Shown here piece by piece: positions 1 to 15,253 of a stretch of 21,171 nt of DNA. The stretch covers positions 1 to 21,171 of the forward strand of contig CAKZTQ010000031.1 of the NCBI GenBank assembly GCA_937921735.1, in the 5' to 3' direction. Source of the DNA: an uncultured archaeon. Its GTDB lineage: Archaea; Hadarchaeota; Hadarchaeia; Hadarchaeales; Hadarchaeaceae. Each line of letters begins with the position of its first letter. Position 1 is the stretch's first letter. Position numbers and translations under genes: made by a program. Below the pieces are notes generated by a model. The model was given only the letters and a program-made list of their open reading frames with translations. It did no database searches and was not told where the DNA came from.

Positions 1-270
1 GTAGCGGGAACACATGCTCTCCAGAGCCCTCTTCATGCTTTTCTCGCACTGTATGAAGAAGACCTTGCCCGCTCCCCTCGCCTCAACCTCGTCAGTGAAG
101 CATTTGCAGGTTAACGTCTTCCCCAATCCTTTTCCACCCTCGAGCCAAAGGTTCTCGGGCACGTCGGACTCAATGATAAATTTGAGCATATCCTGCAGTT
201 GCCTGTCGCGATGGAGCAGCCTCGGGGGTTTGAAATCTTCGGATAAGGGGGCAAACGTCTTGACCTTCAT
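1..270 (-). CDS. cdc6: Cdc6/Orc1-like AAA+ replication initiator, N-terminal part (runs off the left edge)
   Basis: Manual translation from ATG 270: MKVKTFAPLSEDFKPPRLLHRDRQLQDMLKFIIESDVPENLWLEGGKGLGKTLTCK..., open to position 1. L-x-x-x-F/Y-x-P-x-x-L-x-H-R-D/E-x-Q followed by P-x-N and a Walker A (GGKGLGKT) is the typical Cdc6/Orc1 N-terminus. Not in the supplied ORF track. Confidence 0.8.
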   Translation of the reverse strand, partial: MKVKTFAPLSEDFKPPRLLHRDRQLQDMLKFIIESDVPENLWLEGGKGLGKTLTCKCFTDEVEARGAGKVFFIQCEKSMKRALESMCSRY

Positions 271-375
271 GTGAAATCGCCCTGTGCGCGCCTATTTCAC
301 AAGTGCTGTGCGCTTAAAAGTGAAAGTGAAGGTCCGAGGTGCGACTTCTGCCTGACATGATCGACCTTCAATATT

Positions 376-508
376 GATGTGAGGGGAGAACGCGTAGCGT
401 CTCGAGCACAACCCTCACTCCCTTGGTCGATGCCGTCATACTGCCCCTCCGCGACGTGAGGTCCACCCCTCATTTACCCCTCATTTCACATAATCCTCAT
501 TTAAATGA
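376..508. other. Candidate replication origin with ORB-like repeats upstream of cdc6
   Basis: ACCCCTCATTT in perfect tandem (465-475, 476-486), third copy AATCCTCATTT (492-502), opposite-orientation TGAGGGG (380-386) and palindrome TCATTTAAATGA (497-508). The minus strand reads GTGAAATGAGGGGT, similar to the GAAA..GGGG end of ORB elements. Confidence 0.45.
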
Positions 509-552
509 TCTCACGCACCAATCTGGCGTTAAACTGGGAAAGAGGAGCGGTG

Positions 553-957
553 ATGTTGGGAAGAAACGTGAAAAAAGGTTTGAAGGTGGGGATCATTTAC
601 GCGGCATTCTTCGTCGTAGTGTGGACTTTGGCTGCCAATCTTTCGCTGCCCCCCATTCCGATGCTCGGAGGCGGGGAGGCGGATGTGACCTCCCCAGGCG
701 TTACGGAGCTTGACTGGGTGCTTACGAGCGATACGCCGCCCAAAGTTAGCGGGGCAACGTTGAAGTTTGATGACGACTTGGCGAGCGGAACGACCATTTA
801 CCTCTCAGTTCTGAATGATGCGGGCACGGTGCTGGCCTCGGGATCTAAAACCCTTACATCAAAACTCCCTGAAGGCGACCCAGTGACCGTGAATCTCGAT
901 GACGAAGTTCCACCCGAACAGATCTATAAGGTTGCAGTGACCGTCGTAGGTTCGTAG
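553..957 (+). CDS. Secreted single-domain beta protein; candidate SipW-processed (TasA/AbpA-like) fibre subunit
   Basis: ORF 505-957. Likely start is ATG 553, after GAGGAG and TTTAAA at ~500. Basic plus hydrophobic signal ending WTLA, then ANLSLPPIPMLGGGEADVTSP. Aligns over its whole length with the N-terminal domain of the next gene. Confidence 0.6.
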   Translation: MLGRNVKKGLKVGIIYAAFFVVVWTLAANLSLPPIPMLGGGEADVTSPGVTELDWVLTSDTPPKVSGATLKFDDDLASGTTIYLSVLNDAGTVLASGSKTLTSKLPEGDPVTVNLDDEVPPEQIYKVAVTVVGS

Positions 958-994
958 AAGGCCGAATAAGCGAGTTTGCTGAGCGTGATGATTC

Positions 995-2431
995 TTGCGC
1001 GTAAAGAAACCCGCCGCCCCCCTTCTTTTTCTGCTCATGATGTTAGTTACTCTTGTAACCGCTGCACAGTTGCAGCTCCCCCCGATACCGATGCTCGGAG
1101 GCGGGGAGGTGGAGGTGTCCTCCCCCGCAGCCGTTGCGAGCATAAAATGGTTAACGCATTACTACGGCGGAATCCCGAAAGTTGACGGGGTCAACGTAAC
1201 TTTTTTAGGTCCCTTGGCGGGCGGTACCGAAATATATGCGGATCTTCTCGATAGTGCAGGCAGCAGCGTGGCATCCGGCTCAGCAATATTAACATCGGAA
1301 CTGCCAGCCGGGATTCCGGTCACTATATCGACAAGCCCGCCTGCCAACGCATCCGTAGTTTATAAGTTGAGGCTAACGGTCATCGCTCCTGCGCCTCAAA
1401 ATGCGAACGTGACGTTCAGCGCGACAGGGTTGGGCGCAGATGCTGATGGAATAGTTCTGACAGTCGATGGCGGAAGCTACGCCTATTCGAGCCTACCTAA
1501 GACGTTCACGTGGGCTGTTGGAAGCCAACACACCTTCTCGTGGACTGACCCGGTTACTGCGGGAAGTGCGGGGAAGCGTTACGTATGGGCCTCAACAAGC
1601 GGCCTTTCAACGCTTAAAAGCGGAACAATAGAGGTTCCCGCGGGCGGCGGGGCAGTGACCGCCAATTATGTGACCCAATATAGGCTTACGATAAGCGTTA
1701 GCCCAAGCGGCGCCGGCACAACAACTCCTGCGCCTGGCAACTATTGGCACAACCAGTCAACCTCAGTCCAGGTTTCAGCCACTCCAAACCAGGGATACAT
1801 CTTCAGCCATTGGCTACTTGATGGAAACTATGCGGGCTCCAGCAGCACGATAACGGTGCAGATGAACAGCGCCCATGAGTTAGTGGCCGTGTTCCTGCAA
1901 GTCGTTTCGCAGACAAGGTACTTCGGCTACCACAGCCATACGGTAAACGGCTTGAATGCGATTAGGCTCATAACGACCCCTGACGTCTCGTATTTACGTG
2001 AGGGCGACACATCAATAGTTGATCAGGCCATAACTATCAGCTGGGGGATACGGGTGTGGAAGCGCTCTTCCTCAGGAGTTGAAACTGAGATAACGTCCGG
2101 AACGCCGGTGGCGCTTGTTTCAAGGAACAGTAACGGACAGGGTATGCAGTCGGCGACGTGGAGCTGCCCAGAAGTTGACCTGAACCCGACGGACTCAATA
2201 GTTGTGCGAGTATACATGGATTTTGAGGGCTGGCGCCTCCTACAGATCTTCACAACCGAACAGCTCAACGCGGAGCAGCTTCGTCCTTCAACGTGGACGG
2301 TTTATTACTACACTTACTATAACCTGCGCTTACTCGGGGGAGAAGAAGGCGACCTGTACCTCACTGTCTTCTTCTACCACGGCAACTCGGCCTATCCCAG
2401 CCGCATTGAGGGTTTCACATGGGCAGGCTAG
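995..2431 (+). CDS. Secreted multidomain protein: paralogous fibre-subunit domain, surface repeat modules (including an InlB B-repeat-like unit) and a C-terminal aromatic-rich domain
   Basis: Signal peptide ending LVTA, then AQLQLPPIPMLGGGEVEVSSP. Modules VTFSATGLGADADGIVLTVDG..LPKTFTW and GTTTPAPGNYWH..ATPNQGYIFSHWLLDG. Ser/Thr-rich with many N-x-S/T sequons. Confidence 0.7.
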   Translation: MRVKKPAAPLLFLLMMLVTLVTAAQLQLPPIPMLGGGEVEVSSPAAVASIKWLTHYYGGIPKVDGVNVTFLGPLAGGTEIYADLLDSAGSSVASGSAILTSELPAGIPVTISTSPPANASVVYKLRLTVIAPAPQNANVTFSATGLGADADGIVLTVDGGSYAYSSLPKTFTWAVGSQHTFSWTDPVTAGSAGKRYVWASTSGLSTLKSGTIEVPAGGGAVTANYVTQYRLTISVSPSGAGTTTPAPGNYWHNQSTSVQVSATPNQGYIFSHWLLDGNYAGSSSTITVQMNSAHELVAVFLQVVSQTRYFGYHSHTVNGLNAIRLITTPDVSYLREGDTSIVDQAITISWGIRVWKRSSSGVETEITSGTPVALVSRNSNGQGMQSATWSCPEVDLNPTDSIVVRVYMDFEGWRLLQIFTTEQLNAEQLRPSTWTVYYYTYYNLRLLGGEEGDLYLTVFFYHGNSAYPSRIEGFTWAG

Positions 2432-2460
2432 GCGGGAACTGTAGGTTGCAGGTGTAGCCT

Positions 2461-2904
2461 ATGGGGAAAGTCAGCGTGATGCTGCAAGCCGCACTCCTCT
2501 CTTTCCTCCTAGCCTTCATTTTCCTGGAGTTTGCAGGCTTAGTCACCGTGGCGATAGTTGCGACGCCTTCCATGGAGCCTTTTTTGCCTAAGGGGTCGGC
2601 TGGCGTATTCGTTAAGGCAGGAAAATACGAGGTTGGCGACATCATCATCTTCAGGGTTCACGGTTGCCTTGTGGCCCACAGGGTTGCAGCTGAAACTAAA
2701 AATGGTTTCAGGACGAAGGGGGACCATAACGGCGTCTTGGATCCATGGGTTGTTACTGAAGACGCCATCCTTGGAAGGCTCGTCCTGTCCGTGCCGATGC
2801 TCGGCTACGCCATCTACATCTTACGCTCGCCATTGATCTTTGCCGCGGTCTCAACCGCCATCCTCATGATCTTCACATGGGACGCTTTCTGCGGCGAAGC
2901 GTGA
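2461..2904 (+). CDS. Signal peptidase I, S26B (SipW/Sec11-type)
   Basis: N-terminal TM, catalytic Ser in TPSMEP, GDIIIF, His in VAHRV, TKGDHN..DPW and a C-terminal TM. Confidence 0.9.
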   Translation: MGKVSVMLQAALLSFLLAFIFLEFAGLVTVAIVATPSMEPFLPKGSAGVFVKAGKYEVGDIIIFRVHGCLVAHRVAAETKNGFRTKGDHNGVLDPWVVTEDAILGRLVLSVPMLGYAIYILRSPLIFAAVSTAILMIFTWDAFCGEA

Positions 2905-3030
2905 CAACCTCCGGGGTTCAGATGCGCAATTCGAAGAAGAGGGCGACGATTCCGCAACCCTGGCAATATTGCTTTGAGTTTTCATGACTCCAATTTTAAC
3001 GTTCACTTCACTTCAAATTGTGGTGAAAAA

Positions 3031-4143
3031 TTGCACCGCTATGGGAAAGGAATGAGCGCCCTGCTGAGCACCGCAGTTCTCATCATAATATGCGTTTCGG
3101 GAGGGCTGCTCCTCTACACCATTTTGAGCGGCAGATTGCAGTGGGCGGATGAAGGGCTTTCAATAGAGTCCGCTGATCTGGTGAAGCAGACCGATGGATG
3201 CGTGACCTTCGCAATAATAATAAAGAATGTTGGCGGAAAAACTGTGAAAACGCTTATTTTGACGCTTGATGGGGAAGAACAAGTTTCAACCAATATCGTT
3301 TTGGAACCTCGCAAGTCCACGTCCCTCGTTCTGAGCAGCAGCCAACTCACCAAAGACTATGTTGTGGGAAACGTCTACACCGTGACAGTTGAAGCTATAT
3401 TCGTGGATGGGAGCGCGCGCTCGATTACGACATCTTTGAGATGTCGAGGCTGTGGCAGCTCAATTAGAAGGGAAACTGAGGAGGAGGGTGGAGGGGAGGC
3501 TGAGGGCGAGCAGATAGACTTCGCAATCTCCCTGTCCCCATCAGGGACCAAGCTTTTGCCAGGTGAAAGTAACTTCACAGTACTGAGGATTTCATTATTG
3601 AACGGGACATCCGCAGATGTAACGCTCTCAACATCAGGTCTCCCGCCAGGTGTATCTGTAGAGTTCAGCCAAAATCCATTAACAGTTTCCCAAGGTTCTC
3701 CTGCCTCGTGCATCATGAATGTGGCGACGGACGCTACTGCGCCGGTCGGTAACTATGCCGTTGAAGTCATTGGAACTGTGGGAACGCTGAGAAGAAAAGT
3801 GATATATACTCTCATCATAATCGAGGAAGGGGGCCTTCTACTATCGCTCAAGGACCAGGACTTCTGCTTCGGCTTCACGAACGGCTTGTCCGATCAATGG
3901 TTTGATGAAAAACAGGCGAAAACTTACATGTTTCAATTTAGCTACTACTTGGAGTATGAGGCAATGGGCTCACCGTCCGGCCCATCCCAGCAGAATAATG
4001 CAATAATCTACGTTTGGGGAGCCGACTTCATATTCGGATGGGGCGATGAGGTTTACGTCTACAGGTACTCCACGAGCGAGGCAATGAATCCGGAAAGCTC
4101 CAGCAACATATACGCGAACCTGCTTCCGCCGCCTGAAATTTGA
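3031..4143 (+). CDS. Type IV pilin-like protein (class III signal) fused to an Ig-like domain and a C-terminal extension
   Basis: ORF 2974-4143. Likely start is TTG 3031 after GGTGA. KG/MSALLSTAVLIIICVSGGLLLY class III leader. Pilin domain aligns with 16873-17322, followed by an acidic Gly/Glu linker and DFAISLSPS..GLPPGVSVEF..APVGNY. Confidence 0.75.
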   Translation: MHRYGKGMSALLSTAVLIIICVSGGLLLYTILSGRLQWADEGLSIESADLVKQTDGCVTFAIIIKNVGGKTVKTLILTLDGEEQVSTNIVLEPRKSTSLVLSSSQLTKDYVVGNVYTVTVEAIFVDGSARSITTSLRCRGCGSSIRRETEEEGGGEAEGEQIDFAISLSPSGTKLLPGESNFTVLRISLLNGTSADVTLSTSGLPPGVSVEFSQNPLTVSQGSPASCIMNVATDATAPVGNYAVEVIGTVGTLRRKVIYTLIIIEEGGLLLSLKDQDFCFGFTNGLSDQWFDEKQAKTYMFQFSYYLEYEAMGSPSGPSQQNNAIIYVWGADFIFGWGDEVYVYRYSTSEAMNPESSSNIYANLLPPPEI

Positions 4144-4197
4144 GGGGGAAGCCGTGACTCACACTTTAATATCCTTGTGCCAAAAAGGTTTGGTGAG

Positions 4198-5301
4198 ATG
4201 GGGAAAATGAAAACAACTAATGCAATAAGGTCGCTACTTGTGCTCCTAACGTGCATGTTGATGTTATCTCAGGTGTCTGTTGCCTTCAGTTCCAAGTCCA
4301 GCATCGCCCCGATATCTGACGAAGCGCTCCCAACCAGCATGGATTTGGAATTGACGCCTCCGCCGGACGAAGCTCTGATAGTTCCAACTCCAAAATGCGA
4401 GTCGCCCTCGCCTCACGCATCTCTGTTGCTGATAGCGGTCGCTTCAATAGCTATTTCCGCCACCATCCTCATCAGGAAGGCGAGGGCTAGGTGGATGATT
4501 CCCGTGGCCATGTTGGTGGTGGCGACCACTCTCTTAGCGTCCCCTCTGCCCGCTCATGCGGTTGACTTCGGCAACCCTCTGGACACCTCCAACATGATGC
4601 TCTTTGCCTATTATTACGACCAAAACGGGTGGGTGTTGGCTGACACCGTCACTGCCTTCGAGAACTACACGAATCATGGGAACTATTATGATGGGTGGGT
4701 GCGCGTATGGATGGATGTGAAGGACACCACCTTTATTGGCACCGAGTTTTACGTTGACGTTCGCGTGAGGGTGAGGAGCGATGGATGGATCCTTGCATGG
4801 TTGACGAGGGATCAGTCATACGCGTACATCGTGTTCTGGGGACGTAAAATCACTACGGCAGGACCGCCGGTAACCAGCGCAACCGTCCCCTCACGGGCAA
4901 TCCACAGGGTCTTCTACGCCTCCAAAAAGACGTTCCCGGGATATGGCGCCATAAAACTTTATGACTTCACGCACCCGACCGCGAGGAAATTGCTGATCTT
5001 CGGCAAGTCCATTTCTTCTGGCAGCGCTGCCAACGTTTACTTCTATTACACCATCCCGGCAGGCATTCAAGTAATGGATGCGACTACAAGCGTTTCTTAC
5101 TACGAATCTTCTTCCTCGTATTGGGGAAAAATAAACCTCGACGGTGCCACGGTCATCAACCTTGATGCGACAACCTACTGGCGCTCATTCGACTGGCCTC
5201 TATCCGCCTTCACTACTGAAGTGAAGCACACAATTCACTTGCAAGTATCCACAACGACCGGGAGCATCTACATTAATTTCGCGCTCATCCTTTGGCTGTG
5301 A
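4198..5301 (+). CDS. Hypothetical secreted/membrane protein with two signal-peptide-like segments
   Basis: ORF 4177-5301 with GGTGAG before ATG 4198. N-terminal signal, Pro-rich spacer, TM, RKARAR, second hydrophobic stretch ending PAHA, then a Trp/Tyr-rich domain. Confidence 0.65.
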   Translation: MGKMKTTNAIRSLLVLLTCMLMLSQVSVAFSSKSSIAPISDEALPTSMDLELTPPPDEALIVPTPKCESPSPHASLLLIAVASIAISATILIRKARARWMIPVAMLVVATTLLASPLPAHAVDFGNPLDTSNMMLFAYYYDQNGWVLADTVTAFENYTNHGNYYDGWVRVWMDVKDTTFIGTEFYVDVRVRVRSDGWILAWLTRDQSYAYIVFWGRKITTAGPPVTSATVPSRAIHRVFYASKKTFPGYGAIKLYDFTHPTARKLLIFGKSISSGSAANVYFYYTIPAGIQVMDATTSVSYYESSSSYWGKINLDGATVINLDATTYWRSFDWPLSAFTTEVKHTIHLQVSTTTGSIYINFALILWL

Positions 5302-5398
5302 CGATGATCCGGCACACCCTCATGACCTGATGCCCTCTCCATGGCTGAGGTCGGAAAGCTCCAACGCCCGGCATTCATTCCCTGCTGAAACCGTAGGC

Positions 5399-5430
5399 TT
5401 TTTAATTAATCCCTTTTTTAATTAATCCCT
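5399..5430. repeat. Perfect 2 x 16-bp tandem repeat TTTTTAATTAATCCCT (possible T-rich terminator or binding site)
   Basis: Copies at 5399-5414 and 5415-5430, each containing the palindrome TTAATTAA. Confidence 0.9.
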
Positions 5431-5449
5431 TAATCGCACTGTCCTTGCG

Positions 5450-5465
5450 GCATTTTTAAAAATGC
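5450..5465. promoter_or_regulatory. Perfect 16-bp palindrome GCATTTTTAAAAATGC containing the probable TATA box of the parB-like gene
   Basis: Read directly. The TTTAAA core lies about 25-30 bp upstream of GTG 5484. Confidence 0.6.
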
Positions 5466-5483
5466 ACGAACCCAGATTTTTCG

Positions 5484-6302
5484 GTGAAGCGCTTGGACGA
5501 AGTTTCGGCGGTAGTGGTCAGCTTGGACAGCCTTGAGCTCGGCGCCTTCACTCCGAGGCTGATGTTCGATGAGGGCTGGATTAAGGAGCTTGCGGAGGAC
5601 ATTTCGAGGAACGGGCAGCTCAAGCCCATAATCGTGAGGCCCCACCCCTCCAAGCCGGGGTTCTACCAGGTTATCGATGGGGAGCACAGGGTCAGGGCGC
5701 TTGGGCTGCTGGGCATGACGCAGGTGCGAGCTGAGATCCGCCAGCTCTCCGACGAGGAGGCTGTCTTTCTCGCCATGAGGGTGAACGAGCTCCACGGCAA
5801 GCGCCTGAGCGATCTTGAGGAGGGCTCACATATGCTGAAGCTAAACGTTGAGTTCGGCTGGACCCAAGAGAAGATCGCTGAGAAGCTCGGCAGGAGCCAA
5901 CAGTGGGTGAGCGACAGGATCAGGATAGCGAAAAACATGTCTGAAGATTTGAGATTTTACCACGCGCGTGGTAAAATCTCCCTAGCCCACGCGAGGGAAA
6001 TCGCTGAGCTCCCGAGGGAAGTTCAGCCCGAGATCGTCAAGAAGGTTGTTGAGGAAGGCCTGAGCTCGAGGGAGACGGCCCTGCTCACGCACGCGCTGAG
6101 GAGGGCTGAGGGCGAGGATGAGAGGAGGCGAGTCCTCCAAGCGCCAGTCAAGGCCCTGACCGAGGCCTACGAGGAGCCAGCAAGGGTAGTTGAAACAGTC
6201 CTTTCCAGGAAGGAGGAGATTATTGAGACCTTCACGTGCCCAGGCTGCGGGAGGAAAGCGACCGTTGACTGGGTTGAAAGGAAGCTCGTGTGGGGTGAGT
6301 GA
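5484..6302 (+). CDS. parB: ParB/RepB/Spo0J-family protein
   Basis: IKELAEDISRNGQLKPIIVRP..YQVIDGEHRVRA (ParB N-domain, GxxR), EN-like VNELH, HTH WTQEKIAEKLGRSQQWVSDRIR, GKISLAHAREI and a C-terminal CPGC. Confidence 0.9.
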   Translation: MKRLDEVSAVVVSLDSLELGAFTPRLMFDEGWIKELAEDISRNGQLKPIIVRPHPSKPGFYQVIDGEHRVRALGLLGMTQVRAEIRQLSDEEAVFLAMRVNELHGKRLSDLEEGSHMLKLNVEFGWTQEKIAEKLGRSQQWVSDRIRIAKNMSEDLRFYHARGKISLAHAREIAELPREVQPEIVKKVVEEGLSSRETALLTHALRRAEGEDERRRVLQAPVKALTEAYEEPARVVETVLSRKEEIIETFTCPGCGRKATVDWVERKLVWGE

Positions 6303-6790
6303 GCGTGGACGGCGGCAGAACCTTGGCCGAGCTTGAGAGGATAGACGGGGTGGTTGGGGAAGGGAAGCTTTCCAAGGAAGGCATGGCGAAGCTGCGGGAA
6401 ACGTTCGGCGCAAGGTTCACAGCCGCGCTGAGGCTCGTCAGGCGAGGATGCGTTAAAAAGTACGTTTTCAAGCCCAGCGGTCGGGTCCGGTGGATAGTTG
6501 TGGGCAACGAGAGGGAGTACCTTATATACGATAGGGCCCCGTACTGCCACTGCGACGACTTCTACCTCTCAGTAATGAATGGAAGCGCGAAAGCATGCAA
6601 ACACCTGATAGCTCAGAGGCTCGCCTCGCAATTGGGGTTGTACGAGGTCGAGGAGGAAAGTGACGAAAAATACGTCAGGCTCCTCGAAGAATGGAGAAAG
6701 GTTGATGCCCTGCCGAGAACGAAAGGACCCAATGTGGCTGGCGGGCGACGATCCCGGTGGAGTGGCGATGAAGTACACAGTCCATATTGA
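6299..6790 (+). CDS. SWIM zinc-finger protein
   Basis: YCHCDDFY..ACKHLIA matches CxC-xn-CxH; WIVVGNEREYLI is typical of small archaeal SWIM proteins. GTGA overlap with the parB stop. Confidence 0.85.
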   Translation: MSVDGGRTLAELERIDGVVGEGKLSKEGMAKLRETFGARFTAALRLVRRGCVKKYVFKPSGRVRWIVVGNEREYLIYDRAPYCHCDDFYLSVMNGSAKACKHLIAQRLASQLGLYEVEEESDEKYVRLLEEWRKVDALPRTKGPNVAGGRRSRWSGDEVHSPY

Positions 6791-7319
6791 CCTGACTCAG
6801 CCACTCCCCGCCCACGCGAACGCGCTGCTTCACGGCAGGGAGCTGATGCTGCTGGACTCGAATGTGTTGATTGCCCTCTCCTATGGGGCTGAAGAGGAGT
6901 GGGTTAGGAGGATTCTGGTCGAGTGGAGGAGGTATGGGGCTAAGGCTGTCTGCGGGATTTGCGACTTCATCCACAAGGAGGCCATCAACGCCGAAAACTG
7001 GATGATTGGCCGCGTCACAGTGGGATCCTTCCTCAAAAAGATTGCGGAAAGCCGAGATGGGATGTATATTGAGGTTTCAACGACCATAAAGGATGTGAAT
7101 GCAGACGGCAGGGCGGAGTTCCTCGACCTCCTCCCGAAACAACAGAGGATCCGTCTCATTAAAAGCTGGGATGTCTCGCCAACCGACAAATGTCTCCTTG
7201 TGGTGGCAGTATACCTTGGCTGGAACGGGGTTAACGCCTCGGTCAGAACCCGCGATCGCGCCCTAGTCGACCTGTGCAAGGAGTTTGGCATCAGGACTTG
7301 GCCATACCTCTCAGCTTAA
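6768..7319 (+). CDS. PIN-domain protein (putative ribonuclease)
   Basis: ORF 6660-7319, likely start ATG 6768. LLDSNVLI, IHKEA, SPTDKCLL and TRDRAL give the PIN acidic-residue pattern. Confidence 0.75.
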   Translation: MKYTVHIDLTQPLPAHANALLHGRELMLLDSNVLIALSYGAEEEWVRRILVEWRRYGAKAVCGICDFIHKEAINAENWMIGRVTVGSFLKKIAESRDGMYIEVSTTIKDVNADGRAEFLDLLPKQQRIRLIKSWDVSPTDKCLLVVAVYLGWNGVNASVRTRDRALVDLCKEFGIRTWPYLSA

Positions 7320-7521
7320 TAATCTCAGTAAGGTCCAGCTTCCAACCACCAAGATCGGGTTCTGAGCTACGTAGTCTCTGATAGACACGTTAGCTCTCGA
7401 GCTCCATCAACCGTTCCGGGTTCATTGGCGATCCCTTTCTGATTATCGGTCAATTGCTAACGCTTTTTTCTTGCTGCCACACATTTGGAAAAATGCGGGT
7501 GGGGAAAGGCCAGCTGTCAGC

Positions 7522-7731
7522 TTATCTCCCTTTAATCTTTTTTAGACGTTCCCGCTCGATTTTCTCAATGCATGCTTCTCGGGCGAATGAGGATCGGCTT
7601 GGCCAGTGGCCGCACTTCTCAATGAGTTTATCGATTTCCTCAAGAACGGGCATGGGGATGGAGGCCGCTCCGAATTCAACTCGGGCTCTTTTTTCACGTT
7701 TCTCAGCATTTGGACCTCTCACGTTGCTCAT
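7522..7731 (-). CDS. Ribbon-helix-helix (CopG/MetJ-like) DNA-binding protein
   Basis: ORF 7522-7872, probable start ATG 7731 (uncertain). AASIPMPVLEEIDKLIEKCGHWPSRSSFAREACIEKIE fits the archaeal RHH pattern. Confidence 0.8.
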   Translation of the reverse strand: MSNVRGPNAEKREKRARVEFGAASIPMPVLEEIDKLIEKCGHWPSRSSFAREACIEKIERERLKKIKGR

Positions 7732-7868
7732 CTCGCTGCTCTCATGATGTATCATTCTGCCTCGCTTCGAAGGTGTGAACCGTGAAAGATGGGGCGGCAA
7801 CCGACGGGTCTCTGAGCCGCGAAGCATCGCCAGAAGCGAGAATCTCCCGGCTTCAGCCGTGGAGAGTG

Positions 7869-10325
7869 TCAAGCCGAGATCTCAGAAGAGCCCTCGCCCT
7901 CCATCATCATTCTCTGGAATTCGATAAGGTCGTATTTTTTGCCCCTTTTGTGCTTTTTTGATTTTTCGGATGGTGCGGGCTCTTTTTTTGATGTTTCAGA
8001 CGGTGAGCTCGGAGGTGGCGAAAGTTGGGCGCTTGTAGGCGGGGAGGTTGAGGGAGTTGAGGGTGATGGTTGCTCTGTGGATGGTGGGCTCGGAGGTGGC
8101 GAAAGTTGCTCTGTGGATGGTGAGCTCGGAGGTGGCGAAAGTTGGGCGCTTGTAGGCGGGGAGGTTGAGGGAGTTGAGGGCGGTGGAGATCCAGTTGAGG
8201 GTGGCGGTGGAGGGTTTGGATGCGGAATTTGATCCGTGATCCATTTCGTGTTCTCCTCCAGCTCCCTCAAATCCTCGTTCGGATCCCTTCCCAGAATCTT
8301 CGATTGCTTCTCGACATTATCCACTAGATTTGCCAGGAGGTACGGGTTCTCCAGGGCGGCCCTGTTAATCAGCTCCTTAACGCTATCCCCAACCCTCTTC
8401 TCATACGTCCCAGGTATCCTGATCCTGAAGGTTTTCTCCGCCCACTTGCCAGCTTCCTTATCCGGGAGCTTTCTGACGGTTTCCCTGAGTTCCCAGCCCT
8501 TTTCGTAGTCGATCTTGCCTTTTTCATACTTTTCCTCGTATCCCTCGCGCATGAGAGCGTACATCCTCGCCTTCAAGGCCTCTCCGTAAACCCCGGTCGT
8601 CTCCCTGTCGAGGATGTTCCAGTAGAACCGCGGCTTCTTATCTAATGCCTCGAGGTCGGGGTTGGGGAACGGCTCTCCCATACTGCGGAAGATCTTTTCA
8701 ATTTCTGCCTCATTATCCATTTTCTCCTTTAGTGCTTTGGAAAGAATCTCTTCCCTCTCCTTTGGTTCAAGCTTCTGCCACCTGTCGAGGCCGAGCTTGA
8801 TCCTGTCAAGCATCACAGGGTTGGCCACCTTCAGACCTTCCGCAAGCTTCCTGAACTCCTTGCCTGCCTTCTCGCTGTCGAGGGGGAGGTTGAGCTTCTG
8901 AGCCAGCATGTCCCCGATCGCCTTGTCAGATCTACCTGCTATCTCGTTGTCATACCACTCTAAGCCGAGGCCGGCGCTTTCACCCTCGGTTGATTTCAGC
9001 GCAAACTTGTAGAGCAGCCCCTCCGCCGCGCTGCCAGCCCTGCCCGCAACGATTTCCTGAAGGGAGCGCTGAGTGGAGCGCATGGCCCCTGGTATTGTGC
9101 CAAGCGCGGTTGAAAAAACTTTTCCGGGAGGCGCACCGACTAAGGCGCCGGGAAGGATGGCTGCGGCGGCTGCAGCGACCCCCGTCCCCGCGCCCCTCAA
9201 TGCGCCTCCAAGCCTCGATGCGCCCACTCTGCTCGCTTGTAAGGCTCCACTAACTACTCCGGCGCCCCCTGCGGCAACCATTGCGGTCGGGCTAAGCATT
9301 AGCCCCGTAGCCACGGCTGAGGCCGTTGAGGCCACGCCTCCCATCGCCATGAACAGTCCCCCGAGCCTTCCTGCGAACATCGTCGACATGTAGGCGGCTC
9401 CGGCAAAGGTTGCCAGGGCCATGATGAGCTTCGCGATCCCGCCTAAATCGGTTCTGGCAACGAGGAGGTAGCCGAAGTGTATGAGGATCGCGGCTATTAA
9501 GCTTGCGAACATCATTCCAACCGCGGTCTCAATCAGGCTGTCAGCCAAGTGTCTGGTGGGCGGGATGAGCCTGAGCATGAGCAGAAGCGGGAGCGCCGCA
9601 GCCAAGCAGCCGATGAGCAGGAGCCTGACGGCGCCCATCATGACCGCAAGTATCAGTATGGAAGTTGAAATTATGAAGATGACGACGGAGCCGAAGAAGC
9701 GAACCGCTACGTCCCAACCGCCCGAGAGCACGCCTCCCCCCATGGCCCCAATCAGCGCATCAATCTCACCCTCGCTCTGTATGATGAGGCCCGTTCCGCC
9801 AACATCCTGCCAGCCCGTGAGAGCATTCATGGCCGCGGCGGCGCCGTTGTAAATGTACTTCACCGCGAACACCATTATCAGCGTAAAGACCGAGTTCAAA
9901 ATTATGTTCATGGCCGTTCCCTCGCTCATGAACCTGAAAGTTTCGAAGATGTAACACATCGCCGCTATTATGAGGACGACCGCCAAGAGGGACAAGGCGA
10001 TCTGCTGGAGCAGCCCGTAAAGTTGCGCCGCGGCCCAACCAATCCATTGATCTGCCGGGGCACCGCTGACGGGGGCGGCCTGAGGGTTATCCGGGATTAT
10101 GGGCAGTTTGATGAGCAGGACGTATGCACCTTCCGCGCCTCCCATGAGGGAGCTCGCGAGCCACCTGAGTATCTGTGGGCCGAACGCTGCAAGCGCGAGC
10201 ATCATCGCTAATATGAAGCCCACCATGATTGCTGCGTCTACGCCGAACGCCGCCCTCCTGCGCCTCAGCCTCGCCAGCACCTTGGTGCCGGCCCTCCACG
10301 TTAAGCTTGAAAATTTCACCCTCAA
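7869..10325 (-). CDS. VirB6/TrbL/CedA-like polytopic membrane protein with long charged C-terminal region and Pro/Ser tail
   Basis: ORF 7869-10547. Start probably TTG 10325 or GTG 10319, downstream of GCTTTTAAG (10367-10359). About 7-9 hydrophobic segments including AVRLLLIGCLAAALPLLLMLRLIPPTRHLA, then a Gly/Ala-rich stretch as in TrbL/VirB6, then a soluble domain. Confidence 0.6.
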   Translation of the reverse strand: MRVKFSSLTWRAGTKVLARLRRRRAAFGVDAAIMVGFILAMMLALAAFGPQILRWLASSLMGGAEGAYVLLIKLPIIPDNPQAAPVSGAPADQWIGWAAAQLYGLLQQIALSLLAVVLIIAAMCYIFETFRFMSEGTAMNIILNSVFTLIMVFAVKYIYNGAAAAMNALTGWQDVGGTGLIIQSEGEIDALIGAMGGGVLSGGWDVAVRFFGSVVIFIISTSILILAVMMGAVRLLLIGCLAAALPLLLMLRLIPPTRHLADSLIETAVGMMFASLIAAILIHFGYLLVARTDLGGIAKLIMALATFAGAAYMSTMFAGRLGGLFMAMGGVASTASAVATGLMLSPTAMVAAGGAGVVSGALQASRVGASRLGGALRGAGTGVAAAAAAILPGALVGAPPGKVFSTALGTIPGAMRSTQRSLQEIVAGRAGSAAEGLLYKFALKSTEGESAGLGLEWYDNEIAGRSDKAIGDMLAQKLNLPLDSEKAGKEFRKLAEGLKVANPVMLDRIKLGLDRWQKLEPKEREEILSKALKEKMDNEAEIEKIFRSMGEPFPNPDLEALDKKPRFYWNILDRETTGVYGEALKARMYALMREGYEEKYEKGKIDYEKGWELRETVRKLPDKEAGKWAEKTFRIRIPGTYEKRVGDSVKELINRAALENPYLLANLVDNVEKQSKILGRDPNEDLRELEENTKWITDQIPHPNPPPPPSTGSPPPSTPSTSPPTSAQLSPPPSSPSTEQLSPPPSPPSTEQPSPSTPSTSPPTSAQLSPPPSSPSETSKKEPAPSEKSKKHKRGKKYDLIEFQRMMMEGEGSSEISA
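8002..8180. repeat. Coding direct repeats (62 bp x2, 117-bp period, with nested 39-bp units) encoding the Pro/Ser/Thr tail
   Basis: GGTGAGCTCGGAGGTGGCGAAAGTTGGGCGCTTGTAGGCGGGGAGGTTGAGGGAGTTGAGGG at 8002-8063 and 8119-8180. Protein: PSTPSTSPPTSAQLSPPPSSPS x2, with QLSPPP x3. Confidence 0.9.
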
Positions 10326-10390
10326 CGCCCTCGCTCTAAAAGCTTTTGCTTTCTCGCCCTTAAAAGCTGAGGGCATGGAGAGGCCGATGA

Positions 10391-13300
10391 TCAGCGGGAC
10401 TCTCTGAGAAATTTTATGATGAGGCCGACTATTATGGCAGCCGCGGCTACGCCTATGAGCGCCATGGCGACCTGCTCGAACATAACCTCCCAGAAGGTTT
10501 TGCCCCAAGGCTGGACTGCCACAATAGCATGGAATCTTGTCCCCCAAACGTTTTCAGCCTCGATTAGGAGGAGCGCATCGTCGTATCCTGGCAGCGCCTT
10601 CATCTCCGGATCCTTCGCCACGAGAAGCTCCATCCGGCCTGAGAAGCCTAAGACGCCCCCGCGGATTGAGGAGTAGCCTCGGTAGCCCGAGAATCTGCCG
10701 TCTTCAATCCACTCTTCAGGAACCGTCAGGTTCAAGGAGAAAAGCCTCCTCAACTGCAGCCCCTCAACAGGGATGTCCTTCAACATGTAGCCATGCGGCG
10801 CACTCGCAACCGCGTAGGCAGTTATCTTCGCCAAGCCCCCGAGCTCGGGAGCGGCCTCAACAGTCAGCCTTGAAGTTTTAGGGCCGTCCGAGGTCACGTT
10901 GACGGGCAACGGTGAACTGGGGTCGAGGTTTGCGTAGATCGTGAGCGGCTCGCTTGAGGCGAAGTCCACGTAGACCGTCTTCGCGATGGAGACCGCGTCT
11001 TTCCATCTCCAAAGCCATGCATTGGTGAAGCGGAGTCGATCGATCCAGAACCGCCCCGCGGGCTCCGCAAGTTCAGCGTATATCCCGACCGCATGGATTT
11101 CCCCCCCGGCGGGAAGAGTGACCGTCCGCCACGAGCCGATCCCAACGGTCTCGTTCATGGCGGCGATGCCCGAGGGCGAGAGGAGCACAACCGTCACTTT
11201 GCCGCTGCAGCCCTCGCCGAGGTATATGTCGAAGGAAAGGCTGCCCGACGGGGCATCTGCGGGCTTGATGAGATGGAGGAGCGCGCATGCCGTCGCCACG
11301 CCCTCAGCGTCCACCATTATGCTTGAAAGCCCGGCTGTCTTTCTGCCCCAGTCCGCGGAGACCCTGCAGGACGGGGAGTCCCACCACGCATATGCGTTCT
11401 CGATATTCTCGGTCAAGGCGTCTCCGTCGTGCGGGTACACGCCAAGGTATGGCGTTCCGCGGCCCGCCGTCGCGTTGAGGTTGTAGAGGAAGGCGCTCGT
11501 CCTGTTCATGGTGCCCGATGCTGAGCCGACCCCGCCGAAGTACTGGGGGTGGCATTCGTATATGTCCTTGGAGGCGATCTCCAGCATCACCTCATCGATC
11601 TCCTGCTCCTCAAGGTAGCTTCTGAACCAGTTTTCCTCAGTTGTGTTGAAGGTTGGGCTGAGGAGCGCCTCAACCCTGACGGTGCCGTCGATGGACCAGC
11701 TCTCAGCCGCTCGATCCCACCTGAAGGCTTTGACCTCCACGTCCTTCCGGTAGTATTCGAGGGGGCATGTGAAGTTCACGCTGAACGCGTGTGTTCGGGG
11801 GGAGAAGGCATCGGTGGTGAAGGTTACCCTGTAGGTCAGCGAGACGTTGTATCCCATCCCCAACGCCTCAGCCGCCACCCTGTCGTCCAGGTCGAAGATG
11901 AACTTTACGTAGCGGCTCTCGTTGCTGAAGAAGACTGGAAGCTGGAAGTTGACGAACTTCAGGGCATCGTTGCGGCTTACGCCCGCCTCCCTAGCTACGC
12001 TTTCCAAGAGCTTGTTGTGCGAGTAGACGCCTATGACCTTGCTGCCGACCATCGTCGCTTTCACGCTTCCGCTCGGAGATGGAAGCTTGGAGGCGAAGTC
12101 CATTAGCAGCCGTTGAGCCTCCTCCAGCGTGACGTTCCCTTTCAATTCGACCTGCGGCGGCGTGATGAGGGCATACTCGAAGGAGAACCATTCGTCCCAA
12201 GCCATCCCGTAGCCGACCTGCGTGTACACGGGCATCCGAACGGTCCACTTATACGTGTGGGTTGCGTTTTCAGGCCAGCTGTAGGTTTTCGGGAGGTCCT
12301 TGACGGTGAGCCCTTCGCCGTCAACCTTCAGTACTATGCCCTCAGTTTCGGCGTCCATCCCGGCCGCGGAGAACGTGACCCCGCGTGTGAGGTTGAACAG
12401 CTCCATGATGGCCCGGAGGTTTTCCGCTATTTCTTCAGGTTTCGTTCCGGACAGGCCCGGGATGGCCGTCAGACCCGTGAGCCGCTGCTGAACCGCAATC
12501 CTGCTCGCATGCCCGTACCAGTCCCAGCCCTCGAAGACGGCCCTCTTCCCCAGATCCTTTTCGGGGCCGTTCCCGTCGTACCTGACGATTACGGCGAAGT
12601 GCTTCTCGTAGCTGCCTTCGCCGGGAGACCTGGGTATGGTGTAGGCGAAGGCCGTGAACTGGGGGTCATACTTGGCAACCTCGACGCTCACGGTTGCAAC
12701 GCTCAAGTAGCGCGTTTTGACAACCGCCTTCTCAAAAACGTACCTTTTGCCATACACCTTTGCGCTCAAAACCGCCGTCCACGAGTAGGTGTGTTGCGTG
12801 TTCGTCCTCCAGTCCGCCGTGTAAGGGAGCCGACCAACGTAGATGTTCTGGGAGCCGTCCAACACAAGCACAACGCCATCCGCATCTGCGTCGAGACCGT
12901 AGGCCGCAAACCTGACCGCCGAGGGCACTTGAACGGGTTCAGTCACTTCGAGCCGGAGGGGGGCCGAGGCCGTAACTTGGCCGCTTGAAGCCTTCACTAT
13001 GAGCGTGTAGTTTCCGGTCGGCGCGGTTTGGGAGGCGCTTAAGGTCATGACGGATTGGAGGGGGGTCAAACCGTCAGCTTCGCCGGACGGGGGCTTGAAG
13101 GAGACCTCGCACCCCTGCGGGACACCTTCGGCAAAGAGCGAGACCGGCACGGACGTGTACCGGCCGCTCAAGCAAACCCTGACGCCTGCGAGGAGGCCGC
13201 TTCCCTGCCCAACGCTTGCCGAGTGCGGGTCAAGAAAGGTTGAGAGGCTCCATGAGGGGATGTAGCCCGGCTTCTCAGCCCAGGCCTGAACCCCCAAAAA

Positions 13301-14560
13301 CTGCTCAGTGAGCGGGTTACACGTGTCCTCAGCTGCGAAGTACCCTCCGCCGCTTGTCCTCGCCGTTTTCGAAACGATCCACGTGCCGCCCGTCCAGAGG
13401 TTCCTTTTCCTGAACTCCGCAACGACGTCGCTGTGGGCAACTGGCGCTCCGCTTGAATCGTAGAGGTAGCCTGTTGCCTGGCAAACCGTGCCCCTGAGGG
13501 GGTCAAACCACGTCGTCCACTTCAAGTCCTTGACAACGAGCTTGAGCTCCGCTTGAGCGGAGAGCGGGACCAGCTTAAGAGGGGACCGGGCCCTCGCCTC
13601 CAACACAAGCCCGGTTGAGGGGGAGGCGTTTTCACCCTCATCTTCGCATTTTTTGAAGACGGCCCCGACCCCGTGCGGGCGGTCCATGAAAACGGTTATG
13701 GGGTTGCACGGCCCCATGTCACGGCCGTCCAAAATCCAGTGGCTGAAAGTGTAGTTTGCGTCCGGTATGGCGAAGACCGAGACGTACGTCCCGGCGTCAT
13801 ACAGGTACATTCCGGGCGGGGGATCCGTCGTTCCGCCGGTTGAGGCGCCTACCCAAAGGGCGTATTGAATCCTGCGGAAGATGGGCTGGAGGGCGTAAGG
13901 CGCGTTCATGACCACGCCTATCGGGTTCGAGGATCCGGCGTGCTTCCCATTGAGGAGCCAGTAATCCAACTCGTAGTAGTCGTCGGGGATGGCGCTCACG
14001 GAGACGGATTCGCCCTTCGCATGCCAGTAGCTTCCGGGGGCGGGGCTGGTGGTGCCGTGCTCCGAGGGGAGTATGGTTAAGAGGAATTCGATCCGGTAGT
14101 GGGCGAAGACCTCGACGCCTCCGAACGTGACCGAGACCGAACCGCTTGCGCCGCCCTCAGCCGTCGCGTAGGCCTCAGCCCTGACTGAAAAGTCATATGT
14201 GCCCGGGTTTGCATCGGCCCTAACCTTGAAGAGCGCTTTGCCGGACGTCGATCCCCACCCCTCGTCCCTAAGCTTCTCGAAGGCTGACTGGTCGTAGACG
14301 GCTTGGACGCCGCTGAAGCTCAGGCCCTCAACCATGTAGACGCCGTAATTTATCCAGAGCTGATCGTTGGGGAAGAAGGAGCCGTCCGGGTTGACTGAGG
14401 GCCTGCCGAACCTGTCCATTCCAGGCCAGTAGTTGACCACAACATTGACTTTCCCGGAGTCTCCTGAAATCTCGATCCACGCCGGCGAGGCGACGTCGGC
14501 GAGGGCGGAAGCTAAGAGGACGAGCAGGAAGGCTGAGCCCGCTAGGCGCTTCCTCCACAT
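10391..14560 (-). CDS. Large (1389 aa) secreted, C-terminally membrane-anchored modular surface protein/adhesin
   Basis: Signal peptide MWRKRLAGSAFLLVLLASALA, two tandem InlB B-repeat-like units, an Ig-like unit, two GLDADADG-type modules and a C-terminal TM followed by KFLRESR. Confidence 0.8.
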   Translation of the reverse strand: MWRKRLAGSAFLLVLLASALADVASPAWIEISGDSGKVNVVVNYWPGMDRFGRPSVNPDGSFFPNDQLWINYGVYMVEGLSFSGVQAVYDQSAFEKLRDEGWGSTSGKALFKVRADANPGTYDFSVRAEAYATAEGGASGSVSVTFGGVEVFAHYRIEFLLTILPSEHGTTSPAPGSYWHAKGESVSVSAIPDDYYELDYWLLNGKHAGSSNPIGVVMNAPYALQPIFRRIQYALWVGASTGGTTDPPPGMYLYDAGTYVSVFAIPDANYTFSHWILDGRDMGPCNPITVFMDRPHGVGAVFKKCEDEGENASPSTGLVLEARARSPLKLVPLSAQAELKLVVKDLKWTTWFDPLRGTVCQATGYLYDSSGAPVAHSDVVAEFRKRNLWTGGTWIVSKTARTSGGGYFAAEDTCNPLTEQFLGVQAWAEKPGYIPSWSLSTFLDPHSASVGQGSGLLAGVRVCLSGRYTSVPVSLFAEGVPQGCEVSFKPPSGEADGLTPLQSVMTLSASQTAPTGNYTLIVKASSGQVTASAPLRLEVTEPVQVPSAVRFAAYGLDADADGVVLVLDGSQNIYVGRLPYTADWRTNTQHTYSWTAVLSAKVYGKRYVFEKAVVKTRYLSVATVSVEVAKYDPQFTAFAYTIPRSPGEGSYEKHFAVIVRYDGNGPEKDLGKRAVFEGWDWYGHASRIAVQQRLTGLTAIPGLSGTKPEEIAENLRAIMELFNLTRGVTFSAAGMDAETEGIVLKVDGEGLTVKDLPKTYSWPENATHTYKWTVRMPVYTQVGYGMAWDEWFSFEYALITPPQVELKGNVTLEEAQRLLMDFASKLPSPSGSVKATMVGSKVIGVYSHNKLLESVAREAGVSRNDALKFVNFQLPVFFSNESRYVKFIFDLDDRVAAEALGMGYNVSLTYRVTFTTDAFSPRTHAFSVNFTCPLEYYRKDVEVKAFRWDRAAESWSIDGTVRVEALLSPTFNTTEENWFRSYLEEQEIDEVMLEIASKDIYECHPQYFGGVGSASGTMNRTSAFLYNLNATAGRGTPYLGVYPHDGDALTENIENAYAWWDSPSCRVSADWGRKTAGLSSIMVDAEGVATACALLHLIKPADAPSGSLSFDIYLGEGCSGKVTVVLLSPSGIAAMNETVGIGSWRTVTLPAGGEIHAVGIYAELAEPAGRFWIDRLRFTNAWLWRWKDAVSIAKTVYVDFASSEPLTIYANLDPSSPLPVNVTSDGPKTSRLTVEAAPELGGLAKITAYAVASAPHGYMLKDIPVEGLQLRRLFSLNLTVPEEWIEDGRFSGYRGYSSIRGGVLGFSGRMELLVAKDPEMKALPGYDDALLLIEAENVWGTRFHAIVAVQPWGKTFWEVMFEQVAMALIGVAAAAIIVGLIIKFLRESR

Positions 14561-14668: not shown

Positions 14669-15253
14669 GTGGACGTGAGCGGTTTAACGCCCATCATCAA
14701 GGGCGGCGTGCGGATCCTGAGGCCGTGCGAGTACGAACTGCTCAGGAAGGGCGCCAAAAAGCTTGAGAACCAGGTGAGGCTGGACGCCCTCCTCCTGACG
14801 GGTTTAAGGTACGTCGAGGCCCGGAGGCTCCATGAGCATCCAGAGTGGTTCGATGGGAGGTTCATACACCTCCCCGAGTATGCGCAGAGGAAGGCGAAGC
14901 GCAGGCAGCGCGAAAGGTGGGTCAGGCTCAACCCTCAGGGGCAGCAGATCCTCCCCTTCTTCTTCAAGGGTTCGCCGCCGCCATCGTGGAAGGCCTGGAC
15001 TGAGGCGCTGAGAAGGTGGGCCCTTCGGGCCGGACTTGACCCGGCGGGGCTTGGGCCGAAGACAACTCGGAAGACTTGGGAGAGCTGGCTCGTGACGTGC
15101 TACCCTGAACGCTTGACGGAGATATTCCTGAGCCAAGGTCACACGGAGCTCACAAGCCTGAAACATTACCTGAACCTGCCGTTCACGGAAGTGGACAGGC
15201 TGGAGATGGAGAGGTGGGTCATGGGCTGGGCTCCGTCGAAAACTTCCAGTTGA
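14669..15253 (+). CDS. Minimal tyrosine recombinase/integrase (catalytic domain only)
   Basis: LLLTGLRYVEA (Arg I), KTTRKTW (KxxR in place of HxxR), SQGH and LKHY (His and nucleophile Tyr). GAGGAGG RBS, with GCTTTTAAG upstream. Confidence 0.85.
   Translation: MDVSGLTPIIKGGVRILRPCEYELLRKGAKKLENQVRLDALLLTGLRYVEARRLHEHPEWFDGRFIHLPEYAQRKAKRRQRERWVRLNPQGQQILPFFFKGSPPPSWKAWTEALRRWALRAGLDPAGLGPKTTRKTWESWLVTCYPERLTEIFLSQGHTELTSLKHYLNLPFTEVDRLEMERWVMGWAPSKTSS

Follow-up and report, generated by a model that had tools for sequence, protein, structure and literature searches.

A conserved archaeal gene module of small secreted subunits, a cargo-bearing paralogue and a signal peptidase I as a candidate builder of cell-surface fibres

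A three-gene unit with two paralogous subunits

A stretch of 21,171 nucleotides from an uncultured archaeon of the Hadarchaeaceae (contig CAKZTQ010000031.1 of assembly GCA_937921735.1, positions 1 to 21,171; hereafter the window) carries three open reading frames (ORFs), ORF1, ORF2 and ORF3, head to tail on the plus strand. They belong to a conserved archaeal gene module, and the family to which the products of ORF1 and ORF2 belong is undescribed. We consider it plausible, at a probability of about 0.5, that this module builds a cell-surface fibre by strand donation between subunits. ORF1 (553-957, +; ATG at 553, stop at 955-957) encodes 134 residues, ORF2 (995-2431, +; TTG at 995, stop at 2429-2431) 478 residues and ORF3 (2461-2904, +; ATG at 2461, stop at 2902-2904) 147 residues, in agreement between the ORF list and an earlier, sequence-only reading of this DNA. 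The intergenic gaps measure 37 nt (ORF1/ORF2) and 29 nt (ORF2/ORF3), and this layout, together with the family match described below, bears out the proposal of that reading that a small subunit, a cargo-bearing paralogue and a signal peptidase I form a tight unit.

Upstream of ORF1, the sequence contains TTTAAAT (500-506, +), 47 nt before the ATG at 553, which by general knowledge of archaeal promoters is possibly the TATA box of the operon; the ORF listing extends the ORF1 frame to an alternative ATG at 505 that overlaps this word. A Shine-Dalgarno-like word, GAGGAG (542-547, +), likewise read from the sequence, lies 5 nt upstream of the ORF1 start, whereas no comparable word precedes the TTG of ORF2. 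The pairing of an ATG with such a word in ORF1, as opposed to a TTG lacking one in ORF2, fits a shaft stoichiometry in which ORF1 would be the more abundant product.

ORF1 and the N-terminal domain of ORF2 are identical at 51 of 121 positions (42%; BLASTP E=9e-20), an alignment that covers the signal peptide and the whole ~110-residue domain and so agrees with the extent of paralogy claimed by the sequence-only reading. Both proteins contain the motif L-x-LPPIPMLGGGE-x-x-V-x-SP. That reading also took the N-terminal segment, as a strand, to be the best conserved part of the pair, and a codon alignment leads to the same ranking: the segment following the signal peptide (ORF1 residues 28-49) matches ORF2 at 16/22 residues and the core (50-134) at 33/83, the overall nucleotide identity being 178/357. 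The 22 identical nucleotides to which it drew attention (658-679 = 1088-1109) are exact, and they form the longest word common to the two genes. Within P36-E42 the same codon is used for 6/6 degenerate identical residues, as against 16/43 elsewhere. Because both identity and codon agreement are higher there than in the remainder of the two genes, the extension motif is conserved beyond the level of the whole alignment. In LGGGE, the three successive Gly codons differ among themselves (GGA GGC GGG), yet they are the same in both paralogues, and the codon sharing in P36-E42 may stem from local gene conversion or from a constraint at the nucleotide level.

The signal peptide of ORF1 (residues 1-27; 553-633, +) corresponds to a helix at residues 6-28 of the AlphaFold2 model, and the predicted signal peptidase I cut would fall after T-L-A27, a placement consistent with the presence of Ala at position 27 (-1) in 84% of 64 family members and of a small residue at -3. 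That of ORF2 (residues 1-23; 995-1063, +; model helix 8-24) aligns with it. The mature proteins are thus predicted to begin with A-N-L-S (ORF1, 107 residues) and A-Q-L-Q (ORF2, 455 residues). Each then begins with an N-terminal extension, our candidate donor strand: residues 28-49 of ORF1, ANLSLPPIPMLGGGEADVTSPG (634-699, +), and the nearly identical residues 24-46 of ORF2 (1064-1132, +; block predicted local distance difference test (pLDDT) 55-78). Positions V35, L38, G39, G41, V45 and P48 of the extension are conserved across the 64 family members, and in five natural two-domain relatives (P0026, P0048, P0070, P0074 and P0078) the extension occurs once, only before the first domain. Since it is the best conserved part of the ORF1/ORF2 pair, is conserved family-wide, occurs singly and is not folded into the core, we regard the extension as a separate element.

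The ORF1 model, built with 64 sequences (mean pLDDT 92.0), has no regular secondary structure at residues 29-49 (block pLDDT 72-81), which are followed by a six-stranded beta-sandwich core (residues 50-134 with the stop codon, 700-957, +; block pLDDT 93-98) composed of strands 50-57, 65-72, 81-87, 93-100, 111-119 and 126-132. In the ORF2 model, an unstructured segment (25-46) likewise leads into a six-stranded family core (residues 47-130; 1133-1384, +; pLDDT ~96; family profile match E=4.5e-36), behind which come two beta domains modelled with confidence and a C-terminal one modelled with less. The sequence-only reading had supposed that the N terminus is not buried within its own subunit, and the AlphaFold2 monomers of both proteins agree in leaving the segment unburied as a strand.

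The first of the additional ORF2 domains (residues 136-213; 1400-1633, +; pLDDT >90) is shared with a 1389-residue protein encoded at 10391-14560 (-), within which two copies match it at E=3e-15 and 4e-11 (BLASTP). The next is a divergent InlB B-repeat domain (residues 219-302; 1649-1900, +; PF18998 E=4.2e-11, 43.1 bits against a cut-off of 23.6) that is 46% identical to a copy in the same 1389-residue protein. The C-terminal beta-rich domain (residues 311-478 with the stop codon; 1925-2431, +), modelled at moderate confidence with residues 306-345 below pLDDT 50, matches no Pfam family. About 50 of the 60 other proteins found with ORF2 cover 16-45% of it each, in varied architectures; according to the A7 alignment consensus the stretch that they share would be this C-terminal domain, the search itself giving no matched part. 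As a whole, ORF2 resembles multi-immunoglobulin (Ig) surface proteins (the SpyCEP C-terminal domains, YwfG, the PitA pilus tip and SdrD) loosely, at TM-scores of at most 0.21. The description of the 478-residue protein as one displaying adhesin domains therefore stands as to the presence of three further beta-rich domains, and the likeness of these domains to adhesins is loose.

ORF3 matches the archaeal signal peptidase I model of NCBIfam, TIGR02228, with 62.9 bits (cut-off 51.85) over 136 of its 147 residues, and the earlier peptidase call is thereby confirmed. Its matches to Pfam S24 and S26 lie below the cut-offs, and the Bacillus SipW equivalog NF046067 gives 36.2 bits, under the cut-off of 190. 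Residues S37, M38, P40, H73-R74-V75 and G59-D60 are invariant in 7/7 peptidases (ORF3 and six from related loci), the serine box reading S37-M38-E39-P40 and the codons of Ser37 and His73 lying at 2569-2571 and 2677-2679. We take the Ser of S-M-x-P and the His (not Lys) of H-R-V to mark the catalytic sites of S26B enzymes. By eye, a hydrophobic stretch is present at each end of the protein. By these sequence features ORF3 is classed as a signal peptidase I of the endoplasmic reticulum (ER)/SipW type, not as a SipW orthologue.

The subunit family and its peptidase-linked loci

No model in Pfam or NCBIfam covers the domain shared by ORF1 and ORF2. When 1.84 billion representatives, clustered at 50% identity, were searched exhaustively with a profile, 88 proteins matched at E<=1e-3, 24 of them at E<=1e-10; most have 130-145 residues and a signal peptide. 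A word-indexed search with the 64-sequence profile added 95 clusters, among them a large Nitrososphaerota/Caldarchaeales-type subfamily from metagenome-assembled genomes (MAGs). Nearly all of these clusters are unnamed or labelled hypothetical, one family member being labelled UPF0333 in its source, and look-ups in the ESM Atlas returned unnamed clusters only. Cargo-bearing relatives exist with different cargo: P0183 is a 66% identical orthologue of ORF2, P0007 has 396 residues, and P0064 and P0088 carry DUF2341. The Pfam signal in the 64 members consists of scattered weak matches to Ig-like families (Invasin_D3 in 3/64, Big_1 in 2/64). Neither DUF1102 nor PF12389, the family name of which is presumably Peptidase_M73, is among the 25 listed of the 56 families matched by these members at E<=1. 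PF12389 is described as the TasA family (PMC9245690).

A genome scan of species representatives with patterns derived from the closest relatives matched 84 stretches, none of which was confirmed, which implies that the species representatives do not include the lineage of the window. A second scan with patterns of the Caldarchaeales-type subfamily yielded eight loci (L001-L008), from Calditenuis, Caldarchaeum (three loci), Archaeon HR01, and Thermoproteota, Nitrososphaerota and Pyrodictiaceae MAGs. A complete ORF3 homologue lies 0.6-1.2 kb downstream on the same strand in seven of the eight (phmmer E=8e-9 to 3e-14). In L004, the remaining locus, the peptidase gene is in frame and is truncated by the end of the contig. 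TIGR02228 is the best family of the peptidase in 8/8 loci (E=2.5e-8 to 3.7e-16) and exceeds its cut-off in 2/8. The linkage to S26 peptidases that the sequence-only reading expected of homologues is thus present in 8/8 related loci.

Between the first subunit gene and the peptidase gene there are one or two further small ORFs, and the family profile detects two or three tandem paralogues in 5/8 loci. The syntenic small ORFs of the other loci align with the profile-detected ones, and hhalign comparisons of the B and C sets with the family gave probabilities of 97.4 and 96.6. Following the peptidase in 7/8 loci is a protein of ~430-590 residues with a signal peptide, about five InlB-B-like repeats and a C-terminal hydrophobic stretch (for example at 2126-3553 in L002, 9826-11241 in L005 and 9741-11264 in L006). 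It bears a cytoplasmic zinc ribbon in L005, L006 and L001, and is encoded on the opposite strand in L001, the locus L004 itself being cut by the contig end; it could be a membrane anchor of the module or an accessory of its peptidase. The ~470-residue version shows no relation to the subunit family, ORF4 or ORF5 (the two ORFs that follow ORF3 in the window; hhalign probability <=2.3). Neither DUF5305 nor DUF1102 was found in the proteins scanned downstream of the peptidase in 7/8 loci (L004 being cut), and this downstream protein is not a DUF5305 protein. The remaining flanking genes vary from locus to locus; a divergently oriented TrmB-like regulator lies upstream in L004 and L006. Among the 75 flanking ORFs of the eight loci there is no type IV pilus machinery (T2SSE, T2SSF, A24), which suggests that assembly would need no ATPase.

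The proposed fibre and its rivals

We propose that ORF1, ORF2 and ORF3 constitute a self-contained module for a cell-surface fibre that would need a dedicated signal peptidase I. Both subunits would be exported by Sec and cut by the co-encoded ER/SipW-type peptidase, after Ala27 in ORF1 and Ala23 in ORF2. The cut would free an extension of ~20 residues, consisting of a hydrophobic stretch, an LGGGE hinge and V-x-x-P, ahead of the compact six-stranded sandwich, and this extension would dock onto the sandwich of the following subunit, adding a strand to it. ORF1 would form the shaft, and because the extension is almost identical and the core is shared, ORF2 would join the same polymer, where its three C-terminal beta domains would be displayed as an adhesin, either at the tip or laterally. 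The site of cleavage, strand donation, co-polymerisation and the adhesive role are all inferred. The extension is a natural candidate for the donated strand in that it occurs once per polypeptide, is free in the monomer models and is nearly identical in ORF1 and ORF2.

In locus architecture the module resembles the TasA, Tafi and AbpX donor-strand loci, but its subunit fold differs from theirs. TasA of Bacillus subtilis is reported to polymerise by donor-strand exchange nucleated by TapA (PMC9245690; PMC9674648, PMC10151520), and like tapA-sipW-tasA the module joins a major secreted subunit, a minor accessory subunit and an ER/archaeal-type signal peptidase I in one operon. Unlike the ~230-residue jelly-roll of TasA, however, the subunit here has ~107 mature residues and a six-stranded core that finds no Pfam, PDB sequence or fold match to TasA; unlike TapA, the minor subunit, ORF2, is a true paralogue with the same N-terminal segment; and unlike SipW, ORF3 scores far below the equivalog cut-off. 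Haloarchaeal Tafi clusters are described as encoding TafA/TafE subunits, a TafC tip, a TafD peptidase and the DUF5305 protein TafG, with Sec-dependent taf-like clusters in Thermococcales and Archaeoglobales (PMC11821415, PMC12337348). The likeness to Tafi, as described there, extends to the number of small paralogous subunits (two or three), to a tip made of two domains (which in Tafi bears an N-terminal donor strand) and to a dedicated signal peptidase I, whereas Pfam scans found neither DUF1102 subunits nor a DUF5305 protein in the window, and the subunits here are smaller and six-stranded where those of Tafi form 3+5 stranded sandwiches of 150-200 residues. In the AbpX loci of Thermoproteota, including Pyrodictium abyssi, a TIGR02228 gene adjoins the subunit gene, and the larger of these loci are said to add minor subunits and predicted tips for which AlphaFold3 (AF3) predicts co-assembly by donor-strand complementation (bioRxiv 10.64898/2026.01.04.697558). 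Here, too, the neighbour of the subunit is a TIGR02228 signal peptidase I. The AbpX hallmarks given in that preprint are an aromatic residue at mature position 2, an acidic one at position 4, a peptidase with ten transmembrane helices and a DUF5305 partner (bioRxiv 10.64898/2026.01.04.697558); in contrast, ORF1 and ORF2 begin with A-N-L-S and A-Q-L-Q, the peptidase has 147 residues with two hydrophobic stretches by eye, and the Pfam scans of the window show no DUF5305.

Pyrobaculum AbpA and the Sulfolobus threads (Saci_0406) are reported to polymerise through N-terminal donor strands and to do so independently of a chaperone or usher, a neighbouring paralogue or accessory protein being proposed as cap or nucleator (PMC9245690, PMC9715654). 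Like them, ORF1 and ORF2 are archaeal proteins predicted to be secreted by Sec and cut by signal peptidase I; unlike them, with their jelly-roll folds, the family here has no sequence or fold match to those subunits. The module also differs from the AbpA locus in having a dedicated peptidase gene, and AbpA is a poor precedent for co-encoded maturation, since according to PMC9245690 the abp operon has no dedicated peptidase gene in its vicinity. The core of six Ig-like strands behind an N-terminal extension (here the candidate donor strand), and the fusion of cargo to a subunit domain, are features in common with chaperone-usher pilins. Tip adhesins of that system combine a pilin domain with a cargo domain, the lectin domain of FimH being N-terminal, and archaea have no outer membrane. 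In ORF2, unlike FimH, the cargo is C-terminal to the subunit domain. In FimA and PapA an incomplete six-stranded Ig-like fold is described as being complemented by an N-terminal extension from the neighbouring subunit (PMC11821415). No chaperone or usher family appeared in Pfam scans of 21 window ORFs or of the 75 flanking ORFs of the related loci. Taken by analogy, multiple small subunits per locus would be typical of major and minor pilins, and the Tafi/AbpX-like architecture (a major and a minor subunit, a tip with a subunit-like domain and a TIGR02228 peptidase) would favour the fibre reading.

Several observations weigh against strand donation. Nowhere does AlphaFold2 build the extension as a strand (block pLDDT 55-81). 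Published monomer models of AbpA (PMC9245690) and some predictions for thread subunits (PMC9715654) are described as self-complementing, and the absence of AbpA-like self-complementation from our monomer models could mean that the groove-and-strand signal is absent. The core may be complete without a donated strand, given that the second domain of the five tandem relatives lacks an extension, and its middle part also matches the repeats of long multi-Ig proteins. The extension is proline-rich (LPPIP), which limits hydrogen bonding in a beta-sheet. Likeness to solved donor-strand subunits, in structure or in sequence, was found neither in the PDB profile search nor among the Foldseek matches listed, and the window encodes nothing that would obviously anchor a fibre in the membrane, the related loci having no counterparts of ORF4 and ORF5. 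Mutual information with average product correction over 178 sequences (effective number 116) gave no strand-pairing ladder, subfamily-defining columns dominating. Furthermore, the eight loci are not independent: six are close, Caldarchaeales-like relatives, and they were found with subfamily-specific patterns, so that the independent lineages, the window included, number about four.

The main rival to the fibre, which we hold to be doubtful, makes ORF1 and ORF2 non-polymerising, secreted or surface-attached Ig-like proteins, the signal peptides or post-cut residues of which are poor substrates for the housekeeping peptidase, this being the sole reason for a dedicated one. In that case the peptidase, the S-layer or a partner protein would use the extension for recognition or tethering, and it would not be a donor strand. 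This explanation gains from the AlphaFold2 models, in which the core alone is a confident, compact sandwich and the extension contains no strand; from the tandem-domain relatives, whose second core stands without an extension; and from the weak Pfam matches to ordinary Ig-like domains. The Foldseek comparison of ORF1 with the PDB agrees, its best matches being Ig-like sandwiches of a generic kind (a DUF1425 protein at E=0.015, Cj0090, RhoGDI and Ig domains of beta-galactosidase), with none at E<=1e-3. In addition, the SipW requirement of TasA is attributed to residues after its cut site (PMC10269814). On the other hand, 20 conserved residues are long for a peptidase recognition element, the presence of two or three small paralogues together with cargo-bearing forms in one operon is the pattern of a heteropolymeric fibre, and a near-identical extension on proteins of 107 and 455 residues fits a common docking site.

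It is improbable, in our estimation, that the family is a very diverged and shrunken member of the TasA superfamily (TasA, AbpA, AbpX, Tafi, thread, CanA), with ancestry and mechanism in common. Such kinship would account for the same locus logic with the same TIGR02228-type peptidase, and for the presence in both of a Sec signal peptide with a conserved N-terminal segment behind it, and the divergence within that superfamily is reported to be such that its members can be linked only by comparing profiles or structures (PMC9245690). Against it, six strands in ~85 residues contrast with the eight-stranded jelly-roll or 3+5 sandwich described for the superfamily (PMC12337348), the AbpX hallmarks are missing from the mature starts and from the 147-residue peptidase, and PF12389 and DUF1102 do not appear among the families listed for the 64 members. 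No TasA, AbpA, thread, cannula or Tafi chain is among the 47 Foldseek matches listed, and a search of PDB sequences with the family profile gave a best E of 0.025 (the CopC-like domain of YcnJ) and no TasA-like chain up to E=10. A kinship with TasA and AbpA, the precedents named by the sequence-only reading, finds no support in the Foldseek, Pfam or PDB profile searches. Neither the fold nor the sequence profile of the TasA superfamily was found in this family; the co-encoded signal peptidase I, a feature that is frequent but not universal in that superfamily, is present in the window and in 8/8 loci.

Very unlikely, finally, is a type IV pilin-like nature of ORF1 and ORF2, with the helix retained and processing by the prepilin peptidase encoded at 17622-18404: the model does combine a helix with a beta-sandwich, the window does encode three class III pilin-like proteins and an A24 peptidase, one family member does bear the UPF0333 label, and K-K-G does precede the hydrophobic stretch of ORF1, but TIGR02537 matches two true pilins and not ORF1 or ORF2, the family members inspected have no consistent [KR][GA] site before the helix, the 84% conserved Ala at -1 falls at the helix end, the conserved neighbour in 8/8 loci is a signal peptidase I and not an A24 peptidase, and the 75 flanking ORFs include no T2SSE, T2SSF or A24 gene.

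To our knowledge, strand-donating archaeal surface fibres have been recognised only since 2022, in three structural groups that all have subunits of 150-230 residues. If the module does build a strand-donating fibre, we would tentatively place it as a fourth structural class of archaeal donor-strand fibre besides ABP/thread, cannula and Tafi, with a ~85-residue six-stranded Ig-like core, a ~20-residue extension and its own ER-type peptidase, operating without chaperone, usher or ATPase. Its cargo fusions would serve as interchangeable tip or lateral adhesins. Such a class would have a wide distribution among uncultured Thermoproteota (Caldarchaeales, Pyrodictiaceae and relatives), and a mobile element may be its carrier in this window. 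Among the papers listed by searches of the literature on archaeal donor-strand fibres and TasA-like proteins, none describes such fibres in Caldarchaeales or Bathyarchaeia or a subunit family this small. Provided that the fibre mechanism holds, the family would be new relative to AbpX as judged from the description in the preprint (bioRxiv 10.64898/2026.01.04.697558).

Genomic surroundings and implications

Just downstream of ORF3, ORF4 (2974-4143, +; likely start TTG 3031) encodes a large type IV pilin-like protein with an UpsA-type pilin-like N-terminus, …HRYGKG followed by MSALLSTAVLII… (NCBIfam UpsA E=7e-7). It has no counterpart in the eight related loci and is homologous to two pilins encoded within 16324-17388 (phmmer E=2e-22 and 7e-9). 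A start at the TTG at 3031 would leave ORF4 with a short class III leader, and ~40 nt upstream stands an ATTTTAA box; from this box and this start, ORF4 is possibly a separate transcription unit. The two pilins are UpsA-like with class III N-termini (16324-16758, -, and 16873-17388, -; TIGR02537 E=1e-5 and 4e-7), and an A24 prepilin peptidase is encoded nearby (17622-18404, +; Peptidase_A24 30.3 bits, cut-off 26.5; FlaK model E=1.6e-10); neither a pilus assembly ATPase gene nor a platform gene was noted in the window. In ORF5 (4177-5301, +; 374 residues), a signal peptide is combined with a proline-rich linker, two hydrophobic stretches and a beta-rich C-terminal part of ~240 residues; it matches no family of Pfam or NCBIfam, and the related loci contain no relative.

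The 1389-residue product of 10391-14560 (-) is a surface protein with a signal peptide, a C-terminal hydrophobic anchor and a match to Pfam Flg_new_2, and it contains several copies of the InlB B-repeat and 'GLDADADG…LP.T..W' domains of ORF2 (BLASTP E=6e-21 to 4e-11). The sharing of domains between it and ORF2 points to domain shuffling among surface proteins of the same element. The DNA around the module resembles a mobile element, plasmid-like or integrated, and includes an AAA/Orc1-Cdc6-like fragment cut by the window edge (1-270, -), a ParB (N-terminal and helix-turn-helix domains, E~1e-15), an 892-residue polytopic membrane protein with a Ser/Pro-rich repeat tail, a 123-residue membrane protein with a weak T4SS_pilin match (E=5e-4) and a 194-residue ORF without a Pfam match, the motifs of which resemble those of a tyrosine recombinase C-terminus. 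Besides the fragment at the edge, these mobile-element-like ORFs occupy 5484-6302 (+), 7869-10547 (-), 14669-15253 (+) and 18445-18816 (+). GC content rises from ~0.49-0.55 at 1-8 kb up to ~0.60 at 9-15 kb. Positions 1-8000 gave no match to a plasmid collection (megablast), and a tRNA scan of the window found none. A secreted glycoside hydrolase family 16 protein is encoded at 20021-20695 (+; Pfam E=8e-16).

Were the fibre reading true, fibre-building by paralogous subunits, a cargo paralogue and a private peptidase would prove to have evolved, or diverged, beyond what has been supposed. That a dedicated peptidase is conserved beside the subunits is also relevant to the question of why such fibres so often require a signal peptidase of their own, and the subunit would offer a compact, thermophile-derived scaffold, possibly self-assembling, with natural points of cargo fusion. 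It would also put a name to a family of at least 88 representatives at 50% identity that is now without a model in Pfam or NCBIfam and without informative annotation in the sources searched. Should the proteins not polymerise, they would still make up an undescribed, conserved family with a dedicated peptidase.

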